Of a stretch of 64,000 nucleotides of DNA, positions 37,301 to 43,300 are shown piece after piece. The position numbers were made by a program. The DNA comes from Escherichia coli (GTDB taxonomy: Bacteria > Pseudomonadota > Gammaproteobacteria > Enterobacterales > Enterobacteriaceae): the NCBI RefSeq assembly GCF_016903815.1, contig NZ_CP069973.1. One strand, 5' to 3'. How positions within the stretch are numbered: the first letter of the stretch is position 1; each line of letters begins with the position of its first letter.

Positions 37301-40300
37301 GTTTAGATGACCCGGCCTACCTGGTTTGGTTCGGTGAAATTGGCGTGCATGAATTCGCGTATCTGGTGAAAAACTACGTAGCTGCGGTTAACTAATTTAA
37401 GGAGTCTATCATGAAAACTTTTATCAAAACTTTACTCGTTGCTGTAACTATTCTGTTCTCTGTCTTCGCTACTGCGAAACAAGTAAAACTGCCAAATAAC
37501 ATCAAATACGTTAATACTACAGAAGCGTTTTCCTGTACCGAAATTGACGGTATGAATTGCCAGACAAAGAATCAGTTCAACTATAAAGATAACAGCTATG
37601 TTTTCGTGCTTGAACGTGGTGGTGCCTGGTGCTACGACTACACTGTCTCGGTAGTTAACCTGAAAACCGGGAAAGCACAAATGATTGAATACGGGGACAA
37701 TCAACTGTGCTCAGGTAGCAACAAACCGTTCTTCGAAATCAAAAATGGCGTACCGACGGTAGGAGTCATCGACACATCCGGAAAACCTGTCGTTGTAGCC
37801 CAGGACAAACTTAAAATCTAAGGAGTAAACCATGCGTTTCTCTGCACATTATTAATATCAAAGGTAAATACAGCCCCAGCCATTGTTACCGGAAAGCCGC
37901 TTAATGCGTGGCTCGCCAGTGAAAGGCCTCTCAGACAATAAACCTTATTCATTTCACCCGTCAGGCCGCGTCTTCTCCGGGAGACGCGGCTTTTTTCATT
38001 TATTGCACCAGTAAATCTTAACCACCGATAAGGAGCAAAGTATGCGATTAGCAAGTCGTTTTGGTTATGCTGCAAACCAGATACGCCGTGACCGTCCGCT
38101 GACACATGAAGAACTGATACGCCATGTACCCAGTATTTTTGGGGAAGACCGGCACACCTCCCGCAGTGAACGGTATGCGTACATTCCCACCATTACCGTC
38201 CTGGAAAATCTGCAGCGGGAAGGCTTTCAGCCGTTCTTCGCCTGCCAGACCCGTGTGCGCGACCCGGGCCGCCGGGGATACACAAAACACATGCTGCGTC
38301 TGCGGCGGGCCGGAGAGATAAACGGAGAACATGTCCCTGAAATTATTCTGCTCAACTCTCATGACGGTACCTCCAGCTACCAGATGCTGCCGGGTTACTT
38401 CAGGTTCGTCTGCCAGAACGGGTGCGTCTGTGGCCAGTCTCTGGGGGAAGTGCGTGTTCCACACCGGGGAAATGTAGTGGAGAAAGTTATCGAAGGGGCT
38501 TACGAGGTGGTGGGCGTGTTTGACCGGATAGAGGAGAAGCGTGATGCCATGCAGTCGCTGGTCCTGCCGCCACCGGCACGCCAGGCGCTGGCACAGGCGG
38601 CACTGACTTACCGTTATGGTGACGAACATCAGCCCGTCACCACCGCCGACATTCTGACGCCGCGACGCCGGGAGGATTACGGTAAGGACCTGTGGAGCGC
38701 ATATCAGACCATCCAGGAGAATATGCTGAAAGGCGGGATTTCCGGTCGCAGTGCAAAAGGAAAACGTATCCATATCCGGGCCATTCACAGCATTGATACC
38801 GACATTAAGCTCAATCGCGCATTGTGGGTGATGGCAGAAACGATGCTGGAGAGCCTGCGCTGATGCCGTTTCCCTGAGTGAGGGAATCATTCAGCTTTCG
38901 TTCCTGAAAAACACACATTTATTTGTTATTTAAGGAGTTATCTCATGAAAACCGTTTCTCAGAATACCCCCACAATTTATTCAGCTACAACACCAGAGAA
39001 TAATCCGCCTCAGTTGGTTGCCAGCCTCGTCCCTGATGAACAGCGCATCAGCTTCTGGCCGCAGCATTTTGGCCTCATTCCACAGTGGGTGACCCTGGAG
39101 CCCCGTGTCTTCGGCTGGATGGACCGTCTGTGCGAAGACTACTGCGGTGGTATCTGGAATCTGTACACCCTGAACAACGGCGGGGCATTTATGGCACCCG
39201 AACCGGATGACGATGATGACGAAACATGGGTACTGTTCAATGCCATGAACGGTAACCGCGCTGAAATGAGCCCGGAAGCCGCCGGTATTGCCGCCTGTCT
39301 GATGACGTACAGTCATCATGCCTGTCGTATGGAGAATTATGCCATGACGGTCCATTATTACCGGTTGCGGGATTACGCCCTGCAGCATCCGGAATGCAGC
39401 GCCATTATGCGCATCATCGACTGAATGGAGAGAAGCACAATGCAACAACTTTCCTTTCTGCCCGGAGAGATGACGCCCGGCGAGCGCAGCCTCATTCAAC
39501 GGGCCCTGAAAACCCTGGACCGCCATCTTCATGAACCCGGCGTGGCCTTCACCTCCACCCGTGCAGCACGGGAATGGCTGATTCTGAACATGGCGGGACT
39601 GGAGCGTGAAGAATTCCGGGTGCTGTATCTGAACAACCAGAATCAGCTGATTGCCGGTGAAACCCTCTTCACCGGCACCATCAACCGCACGGAAGTCCAT
39701 CCCCGGGAAGTGATTAAACGCGCCCTGTACCACAATGCCGCTGCCGTGGTACTGGCACACAATCACCCGTCCGGTGAAGTCACACCCAGTAAGGCAGACC
39801 GGCTTATCACCGAACGTCTGGTACAGGCACTGGGCCTGGTGGATATCCGGGTGCCGGACCATCTGATAGTCGGTGGCAACCAGGTTTTCTCCTTTGCCGA
39901 ACATGGTCTGCTTTAACCCGTCACAACCACATCACACCTGTTTTCACTTTTATCTTCTGTCTTCAGAGGTATCCCATTATGAAAATTATCACCCGTGGTG
40001 AAGCCATGCGTATTCACCAACAACATCCGACATCCCGTCTTTTTCCGTTCTGTACCGGTAAATACCGCTGGCACGGCAGTGCTGAAGCGTATACCGGTCG
40101 TGAAGTGCAGGATATTCCCGGTGTGCTGGCCGTGTTTGCTGAACGCCGTAAGGACAGTTTTGGTCCGTATGTCCGGCTGATGAGCGTCACCCTGAACTGA
40201 GTGGGAATTCTGATGAGCAGAATTATCGCCACTACCGGACCATTCTTAGCCGATTTTCTGTAAGGATTTTATCGTGTCAGACACACTCCCCGGGACAACA

Positions 40301-43300
40301 CTTCCCGACGACAATCACGACCGCCCCTGGTGGGGGCTGCCCTGCACCGTGACGCCCTGTTTCGGGGCACGTCTGGTGCAGGAGGGTAACCGGTTGCATT
40401 ACCTTGCCGACCGCGCCGGTATCAGAGGCCTGTTCAGCGATGCAGATGCGTACCACCTGGACCAGGCCTTTCCGCTGCTGATGAAACAACTGGAACTCAT
40501 GCTCACCAGCGGTGAACTGAATCCCCGCCATCAGCATACCGTCACGCTGTATGCAAAAGGGCTGACCTGCAAAGCCGATACCCTCAGCAGTTGTGGTTAC
40601 GTTTATCTGGCTGTTTATCCGACGCCCGAAATGAAAAATTAACTCTCCAGAATAGCCTTCTGCTACGGCCTGGTGTTTTCACCACGCCACTTTTCCATTT
40701 TTATATCTGCATATCAGGAAAATCTTCAGTATGAAAACATTACCTGTATTACCCGGGCAGGCGGCCAGTTCTCGCCCGTCTCCTGTTGAAATCTGGCAGA
40801 TACTGCTGTCCCGACTGCTGGACCAGCACTATGGCCTCACACTGAATGACACACCTTTTGCCGATGAACGTGTGATTGAGCAGCATATTGAGGCAGGCAT
40901 TTCACTGTGTGATGCGGTGAACTTTCTCGTGGAAAAATACGCGCTGGTGCTACCGACCAGCCGGGATTCAGCGCCTGTACCCGCTCTCAGTTAATAAACA
41001 GCATCGATATCCTCCGGGCTCGCAGGGCGACCGGCCTGATGACCCGCGACAATTACAGAACGGTAAATAACATTACCCTGGGTAAGTATCCGGAGGCGAA
41101 ATGATGACACTGGAAGCCGACAGCGTTAACGTACAGGCGCTGGATATGGGGCACATTGTCGTTGACATTGATGGTGTTAATATCACTGAACTGATTAATA
41201 AGGCCGCTGAAAACGGTTATTCACTCCGCGTGGTGGATGACCGTGACTCTACCGAAACACCGGCAACTTATGCCAGCCCTCACCAGTTGCTGTAAGACAA
41301 TGCAGTGATGCAGGGTATAGTGCCATTAACCACAGAAACAGCACTGTTGTCCTGTATTAAGCAGGCAAGAGAAGATGTCCTTACCCTGCGCCATCTGCAG
41401 CTTCTGCACCAGAACCGGTGAATCTCACTCAACAGGCTTCATTTCCCCTGACGCCAGCCTGAATACAGCTGGCGTTTTCATTTATAAACAGAAAGGAAAA
41501 CCGATAATAATGGAATGGACGCCCCGACCATGAAGCAACGGTAGGATATTACTGATAAACCTTCCAGTGGAGGTGCGTTATGGCCGTTTTAACGATTAGC
41601 ATTGACCTGACAAAAAATGAATTCCAAATCCACGGTCTGGGTAGGAACAGAAAAATCTAAGCTCAGAAAACGGATTAAAGTAAGCGTCAACGGAGCACCG
41701 TATTGACGCTTATTTATTGGTGAGAACTACGTTCCATGGCAGGAGTTCGTCAACACGGTTGGAGGGCCATTCCGGCAGTATGCTCAGAATATGGCGCAGA
41801 TACGCTTCCGGATCGATACCGTTCAGACGGCAGGTGCCTGCTTTTCCGGCAACAAGCAGGAATCTCAGCGCTGAAGCAGGAATTAGAGGTAAAAACGCCC
41901 TACCGGGCCATGAATCACCCGGTCATTGGAGTAGTAACCAAAGCAGATTTAGCCAGCATGGAACAAATATCTTTGGTGAAAAGTTGGTTACGGGAAGCTG
42001 GAGCGCACAACGTGTTAGTAACCAGTGCAGTTAATAACAATGGAGTTACAGAACTTTTTGCCTTGCTGCATACAGAAGAAGGCTGTTGTTAATTTCGATT
42101 GGTTCTCAGATGAGAATGATGACGGTGATACACAGATAAGAATCAATGAGCAATGAGGGTTGCCGGGCAACCCTCATTGAATAAAACGGGAATTACTTCG
42201 CTTCGCCGTTTTTCATTTCGCCCATAGCTTTCAGCTTTTTGGAGATATCGCGGCGTTCTTTGGAGAGCTCGGCATTTTTGATGATGTAATCGTCAACGCG
42301 ATCTTCATAGTCACCTTTCATGCTGGCGATGATGCCCTGGATTGCTTCAACGCTCATCCCTGGCTTGATGTAATCGCTCAGGTTGTCCAGCAACAGGACG
42401 CGCTTCTGGTTGTCACGGATCTTTTTCTCAACGTCCTGAATTTCACGTTGCAGTTTGTTCTTACGACGGAACAGACGAACAAATTCCAGTACGTCCTGGA
42501 ATGAAGGCTTGGTAGTTTCCATTTTTATACCCCTGATAATGTGAGAGTCGGATTCGTTTAAGCAACCGCTATTCGTTAGGGCCAACATTACTCATAGCTG
42601 CCGCAGATGACAATGCTTTTATCCCTTTTCACTATCATACCCTTTATCCTTGCTGAATCGAAGCAGCAGCAAGATGATTCTGAAGTTCAGGAATTATTTG
42701 CGCAAGGCCCGGCAAATCAGATTCGATAGCAACTCAAGCTGATGTGCCGTTTCCATGTTCAGCCACACATAACCATAGATTGGTGTTTCCACAACCTTCA
42801 GGTCATGGTGGTTATCGAGCAACTGACGCAGCTCTTCCACAGCATCGTTCAATTTTTCCGTATTGGCAAAAACCGGCTGCGGATTACCTTCGTACAGCGC
42901 ATGAACAAGGCTCAGCAGTATTTGCTGCATCATGTGCTGGGTATCACGAAGTTTTTGCGCGTTCAATAACACGAAATGGCTGGGGCGCGTGGCCCAGTAC
43001 GCATTGATTTGCAACTCCAGCATACAAACCAGATTGCGGTTAATGGTCTGGATACCTTCATATATCGATTTGGGAATACGGGTTTCTTTGCTGGCGGGCG
43101 CAATCAGCCCACGCATTTTCACGGCATCGGTCAGCAGTTTTTGTAGATGGCTTTCCAGACGTGGGCGTTCGAGTAAGTTCGGTGAGAATGCAGATTGATA
43201 GACCCGATTATACTCGGTCAGACTTTTCGCCAGTTGAATGCGCCAGTGGATGAACGCCCGTTGTGGCCAGATACCGGTAAACAACATTGCCAGTAAAGAG

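Follow-up and report, generated by a model that had tools for sequence, protein, structure and literature searches.

The CbtA/CbeA (YeeV/YeeU) pair of Escherichia coli K-12 is a type IV toxin-antitoxin module, whose antitoxin acts on the FtsZ and MreB filaments and not on the toxin. Any one of CbeA and its K-12 relatives YafW and YfjZ neutralises each of the three K-12 toxins; the K-12 antitoxins tolerate deletion, and the operon shows no autoregulation (PMC5371832). In addition, a passage of PMC5624674 that summarises Masuda 2012 describes CbeA as protecting generally against other FtsZ inhibitors. Since CbeA acts on the filaments and neutralises paralogous toxins, its effect needs no cognate toxin, and cross-neutralisation together with the published protection against other FtsZ inhibitors makes a toxin-independent role for CbeA plausible. 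In the intact toxin, MreB binding is lost with R15C and FtsZ binding with F65S, and only the double mutant is non-toxic (PMC5624674). Here we describe the copy of this module in a stretch of 64,000 nucleotides from contig NZ_CP069973.1 of E. coli assembly GCF_016903815.1 (the window, meaning the whole stretch that was analysed), in which the toxin gene cbtA is broken by a single-base deletion and the antitoxin gene cbeA is full length. The module is a CbtA/CbeA module at the right end of a decayed genomic island of CP4-44 type. We read its cbtA as very probably a null allele, and the locus as a case of routine decay of a type IV module in which the toxin has been lost first.

The window module occupies the K-12 CP4-44 site. 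Its two genes are adjacent and co-oriented, with the antitoxin upstream and an 88-base-pair (bp) spacer as in K-12, and from yeeS to tmaR the region differs from K-12 by 8 substitutions and the single cbtA gap over 3,098 bp (99.7% DNA identity). The locus is thus a member of the family by position, gene order and sequence, and it lacks one defining feature, the full-length toxin. When the window gene is aligned with cbtA of K-12 MG1655, the sole difference in 375 bp is one missing G: K-12 reads GGTGCGTACC where the window reads GGTGC-TACC, and the G of Arg74 (CGT) is absent between positions 40950 and 40951. Translation of 40731-40994 gives the native residues M1 to V73, then 14 foreign residues and a stop, 87 residues in all, and translation of 40952-41104 gives TDQPGF...KYPEAK and a stop, which is exactly CbtA residues 75-124. 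Accordingly, a tblastn search with K-12 CbtA as the query returned two segments, each 100% identical and each in its own frame (E = 3.9e-66). The full-length CbtA_toxin domain (Pfam PF06755) was not found in one reading frame of the window, the 87-residue open reading frame (ORF) covering model positions 1-73 of 112 and the intact K-12 protein positions 1-112. An earlier sequence-only reading of this DNA had placed a truncating one-base deletion near 40950 and had proposed alignment to intact cbtA as a check; that alignment bears the deletion out, with its one gap at the G of codon 74. The same reading had the toxin matching for about 71 codons before an early stop, and the rest of the protein running uninterrupted in the +1 frame to 41104. 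The early stop and the open frame to 41104 both hold; 73 native codons are retained, however, and, counted from the start codon, the C-terminal part is in the -1 (= +2) frame, which a ribosome could reach only by slipping one base backward.

The deleted G sat in GCGT (now GCT), which is no run of any kind; the longest homopolymer in the gene, and its only run of at least five, is the A5 at 40933-40937. A 6-bp inverted repeat, GCTGGT...ACCAGC, spans 40943-40961 and has the site in its loop. We also considered a phase-variable locus and rejected it, as the change from GCGT to GCT falls outside any simple-sequence repeat. The features of the locus are collected in Table 1.

Table 1. Position, strand and character of the genes and gene remnants at the cbeA/cbtA locus of the window.
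Feature	Position	Strand	Remarks
cbeA (yeeU)	40274..40642	+	type IV antitoxin, intact, 122 residues, GTG start; WP_001285585.1 in identical genomes by the NCBI Prokaryotic Genome Annotation Pipeline (PGAP)
cbtA (yeeV) pseudogene, whole span	40731..41104	+	374 bp against 375 bp in K-12; PGAP 'cbtA, frameshifted'
Truncated cbtA ORF, 87 residues	40731..40994	+	CbtA residues 1-73 and a 14-residue out-of-frame tail; TAA stop at 40992-40994
1-bp deletion site in cbtA	40950..40951	+	G of codon Arg74 lost, CGT to C-T; outside any homopolymer or simple repeat
cbtA untranslated remnant	40952..41104	+	residues 75-124 in the -1 frame, to the original TGA
yeeW (DUF5983), 64 residues	41101..41295	+	start overlaps the original cbtA stop (ATGA); N-terminal remnant of a protein of ~163 residues
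DUF957 gene remnant	41305..41421	+	C-terminal ~30 codons alone recognisable; PGAP 'DUF957, incomplete, missing N-terminus' at the equivalent position
yeeT (DUF987)	39979..40200	+	upstream gene, same conserved island end; from the ORF and the PGAP annotation of identical strain 7/2
yeeS (RadC-like JAB domain protein)	39440..39916	+	upstream, same conserved island end; PGAP annotation of 100%-identical strain 7/2 mapped to the window

Translation ends after the 73 native and 14 foreign residues, so that the C-terminal 51 residues, or 39 of the 112 Pfam positions, are gone, and the product is most likely non-toxic. A docking model places MreB contacts at CbtA L88, I89, N113 and K119, and has M1-V19 packing with residues 82-122 (PMC8828653). 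All four contact residues are lost from the 87-residue product, and loss of both the MreB-directed activity and the native fold is likely; a sequence search of the PDB found no solved CbtA structure. The antitoxin gene, meanwhile, is untouched and is presumably still expressed from the shared transcript. The gene may persist simply because its decay trails that of the toxin, or because cross-protection is mildly selected. Under neutrality a toxin is expected to be lost ahead of its antitoxin, and we take this order as the default.

This deletion is a genuine, inherited lesion that arose once and is already on record. The exact 71-bp junction across the deletion was found in 1,498 of 5,426 complete RefSeq E. 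coli genomes, about a quarter (with query coverage of 80% or more in all but two of the matching records), and the exact intact K-12 junction in 1,785 records of the same set. Carriers include O157:H7, O55:H7, O111:NM, O103:H2, O104:H4, O145, O20:H12 and E. coli C. We take O157:H7 and O55:H7 to belong to phylogroup E, O104:H4, O111 and O103 to B1, E. coli C and K-12 to A, and JJ1886 to B2. Around the gene, 1,101 bp are 100% identical in at least 40 complete genomes of diverse strains (E. coli C, O104:H4, O145 and WG5 among them), and the 24.5 kb from 18000 to 42500 of the window match more than 20 complete genomes with 100% identity, that of strain 7/2 (NZ_CP023820.1) being one. The exact 87-residue product occurs on at least 1,000 contigs under the product name 'toxin of the YeeV-YeeU toxin-antitoxin system', and variants with the same frameshift tail and extra substitutions are also found (D40N on 418 contigs, I24T/S27T on 120, and R15H with D40N). 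Because the same tail exists with further substitutions, the allele is old and inherited. In the Sakai reference genome the short ORF, of 264 bp, is annotated as yeeV (ECs_2806) inside 'SpLE2'. An intact 375-bp cbtA stands at the same locus in K-12 and in the B2 strain JJ1886, which, together with the full-length Pfam family, indicates that the intact form is ancestral. The PGAP label 'cbtA, frameshifted' was present in every carrier inspected (E. coli C, 7/2, O157:H7 PV15-279, MS7163 and others). The frameshifted gene is therefore known at the level of sequence and annotation, RefSeq flagging it in well over a thousand genomes; our literature search found no paper describing the allele.

The sequence-only reading had also called cbeA intact, and so it proved: the protein is full length at 122 residues, matches Pfam PF06154 (CbeA_antitoxin) over positions 1-100 of 101 (E = 5e-53) and is identical to K-12 CbeA at 121 of 122 residues. 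The one difference is residue 108, G in the window and D in K-12. As G108 is also found in JJ1886, O157, MS7163 and the other strains compared, the D108 of K-12 is probably derived. We then compared nine further carrier loci at the CP4-44 position (E. coli C, 7/2, O157:H7 PV15-279, MS7163, SC516, O20:H12, O111:NM, 1000C-3 and TUM2330). cbeA is full length at all nine, and in Sakai, where the length is that of the annotation only. Among the nine carriers cbeA has seven synonymous and four nonsynonymous variable sites (P28L, L53R, L62P and V90I), the 5' part of cbtA has none and four (A12T, L38Q, N64S and V73M), and the 3' remnant of cbtA has no changes of either kind. The cbeA replacements are L62P in O157:H7, P28L in SC516, and L53R with V90I in 1000C-3. 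A one-sided Fisher test of 4:7 in cbeA against 4:0 in the 5' part of cbtA gives about 0.05 (70/1365) in this small sample of nine. A single strain contributes six of the cbeA variant sites (four synonymous), and these may all belong to one recombination tract. These counts weakly support constraint on cbeA and relaxed constraint on cbtA.

An adaptive origin for this arrangement is possible but doubtful. It would have the orphan cbeA selected to shield FtsZ and MreB from resident or incoming toxins of the CbtA family, as a form of anti-addiction; the sequence-only reading had said that loss of the toxin with retention of its antitoxin would be a domestication event. In favour of domestication, cbeA is full length at every sampled locus and in Sakai with more synonymous than nonsynonymous sites, the antitoxins of the three K-12 systems have been shown to cross-neutralise (PMC5371832), and anti-addiction has a precedent in ccd and ataRT (PMC10305079). 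Moreover, the orphan cbeA of Sakai shares its genome with an intact paralogous toxin, ECs_4539, the antitoxin of which is cut by an insertion sequence (IS), and genomes identical to the window have four matching places. However, E. coli C, with a single matching place in its genome and so no close paralogous toxin to neutralise, has kept the same intact cbeA. Non-conservative changes in CbeA occur in three of the nine carriers (L62P, L53R and P28L), one strain, and possibly one tract, accounts for most of the synonymous sites, and the Fisher test is borderline. Divergence in the region is so low that an intact 369-bp gene would be expected even without selection, and the module sits in an island remnant full of other pseudogenes. 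Thus, of the domestication claim, the broken toxin and the kept cbeA hold, whereas selection on cbeA is possible, the ratio of seven to four suggesting it weakly.

Returning to the decay of a null allele, several observations weigh against it, most of them because they leave room for a toxin fragment with some activity. R15 and F65 are both kept in the 87-residue product. C-terminal truncations of YeeV reportedly still elongate cells. The part of a review that summarises Tan et al. 2011 assigns the FtsZ interaction to the N-terminus of CbtA and the MreB interaction to its C-terminus (PMC3920263). Furthermore, the 3' remnant shows no substitution in the nine carriers and hence no visible decay, in a region where divergence is only ~0.3%, and the high frequency of the allele, compatible with drift and hitch-hiking, is compatible with selection too. 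The short product might still be active, whether as a decoy or as a division inhibitor that is attenuated or restricted to FtsZ, and the module might have been remodelled and not be dead. Such a fragment would retain both contact residues known from the mutants (PMC5624674) and the N-terminal portion for which FtsZ binding is reported (PMC3920263, in its summary of Tan 2011); the ORF is open at 87 residues in the carrier variants read, a biased sample gathered by matching that very product, and the allele is very common (1,498 of 5,426). Against this, one third of the conserved domain is missing, the retained part has four nonsynonymous and no synonymous sites in the nine carriers, and the public variants include R15H, a change at a contact residue, a pattern that resembles relaxed constraint. 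We consider residual activity unlikely. Of the sequence-only reading's statement that cbtA is inactivated, then, the truncation is observed, and inactivation is its probable result in a product that retains R15 and F65.

Restoration of low-level full-length toxin, by a -1 ribosomal slip or by transcriptional slippage, is very improbable. The -1 frame of cbtA is open from 40913, a slip-prone A_AAA stands at Lys69 (40934-40937) upstream of the deletion, and a -1 slip there would give a 124-residue protein that differs from the wild type at residues 70-74 only. However, the ORF lacks a canonical X_XXY_YYZ heptamer throughout and has A5 as its longest homopolymer, the Rfam scan found no frameshift element in the region, and the intact orthologue needs no frameshift, which marks the site as a recent lesion and not as a conserved recoding site. 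A programmed frameshift was accordingly rejected as a candidate, with neither a slippery heptamer nor a long homopolymer present and with intact homologues that need no shift. Nor did we find a start codon from which the downstream -1 frame could give a separate product of at least 30 residues. Least probable of all, to the point of being negligible, is a sequencing or consensus error in a genome whose cbtA is really intact, a caveat of the sequence-only reading that no longer stands: single-base indels are the commonest assembly error and the window is known from its assembly alone, but the site is no homopolymer, the identical junction recurs in complete genomes from many laboratories and platforms, it is already in the Sakai reference as the 264-bp yeeV, the surrounding 24.5 kb match more than 20 independent assemblies perfectly, and the 87-residue product recurs on at least 1,000 contigs with derived alleles sharing its frameshift tail.

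The decayed cbtA has paralogues elsewhere in E. coli. The SpLE4 locus of O157:H7 Sakai, in the locus of enterocyte effacement (LEE) region (NC_002695.2 4582914-4585385), encodes the intact toxin ECs_4539 next to an antitoxin cut by an IS to its last 50 codons, and the Sakai SpLE2 locus (NC_002695.2 2749195-2751665) has the intact cbeA ECs_2805 beside the truncated yeeV ECs_2806. One genome thus holds an orphan toxin and an orphan antitoxin. In the O55:H7 strain DEC5D (NZ_CP038386.1 131644-134114), the SpLE4/LEE-type toxin locus carries the same 1-bp deletion; its antitoxin is IS-truncated, and its DUF5983 and DUF957 genes are full length. A site-by-site comparison shows that positions 873-1373 of the DEC5D locus match the CP4-44 type at every informative site, and that both flanks are of the Sakai SpLE4 type. 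On this pattern, a gene-conversion tract of ~500 bp copied the null allele into the DEC5D paralogue. It is tempting to join this to a selected cbeA, with the frameshifted cbtA acting as a donor that disarms paralogous toxins by gene conversion while CbeA protects FtsZ and MreB, in a stepwise, lineage-wide disarmament of a multi-copy family. Gene conversion is seen in one case, DEC5D, and we regard the full scenario as improbable. What is mildly novel here is the spread of a null allele between paralogues by gene conversion, and the presence of an orphan toxin and an orphan antitoxin together in O157:H7.

Next to the module, the genes downstream of cbtA are also remnants. The YeeW of the window is identical to that of K-12 and is 71% identical over 55 residues to the N-terminus of the 163-residue ECs_4540 (DUF5983), and the ORF that follows matches only the last 30 residues of a 65-residue DUF957 protein. 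Roughly, we estimate that a deletion of ~440 bp removed the remainder of the two genes. A GGAGG motif, read directly from the sequence, lies at 41092-41096 ahead of the yeeW start. Both DUF5983 and its neighbour beside cbtA, the ANF00264 sequence, are treated in a 2026 paper (PMC13294457). Scans of CbtA in both forms, CbeA and YeeW against NCBIfam matched no family, Rfam found no element in or near the module, a promoter and terminator scan of 38800-42200 gave matches at the level of shuffled sequence, and tblastn found no second cbeA/cbtA copy in the window, which has one copy only.

More widely, the module is flanked upstream of cbeA by yeeT, yeeS, an antirestriction gene and a DUF932 gene, and downstream by a yoeF-like gene, tmaR (yeeX), yeeA, sbmC, dacD and sbcB. 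In the annotation of strain 7/2 the island contains many frameshifted, partial and IS-interrupted genes (PfkB kinase, glutamine amidotransferase, DMT transporter and gamma-glutamyltransferase), with IS66, IS4, ISL3 and IS100 among them. By the same annotation, window positions 13000-28300 are heavily decayed, with frameshifts in the PfkB kinase and glutamine amidotransferase genes, a DMT transporter gene interrupted by an internal stop, incomplete copies of IS66, IS4 and ISL3, and an intact IS100 (istA/istB at ~26462-28263). The cargo at 29874-37821 encodes a 387-residue hypothetical protein, a GTPase, a 798-residue dynamin-family protein, an RdcB-family protein, a patatin-like phospholipase and two small hypothetical proteins. 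The PADLOC matches in this cargo are weak: the GTPase (8e-8) and the dynamin-family protein (9e-5) match LeoBC, and there is one match to a phospholipase effector (1e-4); a defence role is conceivable but unsupported. The window also contains three tRNA-Asn genes at 5330-9638 (the asnW/U/V cluster), the small RNA STnc240 at 50370-50444, the histidine operon leader at 53183-53306 and, near its end, an ALIL pseudoknot (an Rfam cis-regulatory family) at 61952-62068.

To conclude, we present a common null allele, as we read it, of a well-studied toxin gene, which has little import for biology at large. It does bear on how such modules are counted. In Sakai, UniRef and many GenBank records the short ORF goes by the name 'toxin of the YeeV-YeeU system', and strain surveys that score 'CbtA/CbeA present' from it overcount functional toxins. 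About a quarter of complete E. coli genomes, O157:H7 included, carry an orphan cbeA at this site and offer natural backgrounds for the study of antitoxin cross-protection, and the DEC5D case shows that null alleles can move between paralogous toxin-antitoxin loci.

Among known systems, the closest is CbtA/CbeA of the K-12 cryptic prophage CP4-44, with which the window shares the locus upstream of yoeF, tmaR, yeeA and sbmC and the order yeeS-yeeT-cbeA-cbtA-yeeW; it differs in a toxin frame broken at codon 74, and in a cargo of GTPase, dynamin-family protein, RdcB and patatin-like phospholipase in place of the K-12 genes flu and yeeR. YkfI/YafW (CP4-6), YpjF/YfjZ (CP4-57) and the SpLE4/LEE copy (ECs_4539) belong to the same Pfam families, the SpLE4 copy of O157:H7 at ~89% DNA identity. 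In these paralogous modules, unlike the window, the toxins are intact, and Sakai SpLE4 is the mirror image, with its antitoxin broken by an IS. Orphan antitoxins of the anti-addiction type, such as chromosomal ccd against F-plasmid ccd, likewise lack a working cognate toxin and could act against homologous toxins encoded elsewhere (PMC10305079). They differ in that CbeA acts on the targets of the toxin and not on the toxin, and comparable selection on cbeA is here a hypothesis. With ordinary frameshifted island pseudogenes, finally, the window cbtA shares a single fixed indel, many partial or frameshifted neighbours and later replacement substitutions, and it is unusual only in the wide distribution of the allele and in its transfer to a paralogue by gene conversion. 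The locus is therefore best filed as a frameshifted cbtA pseudogene with an intact cbeA, for which ordinary gene decay is the best reading.

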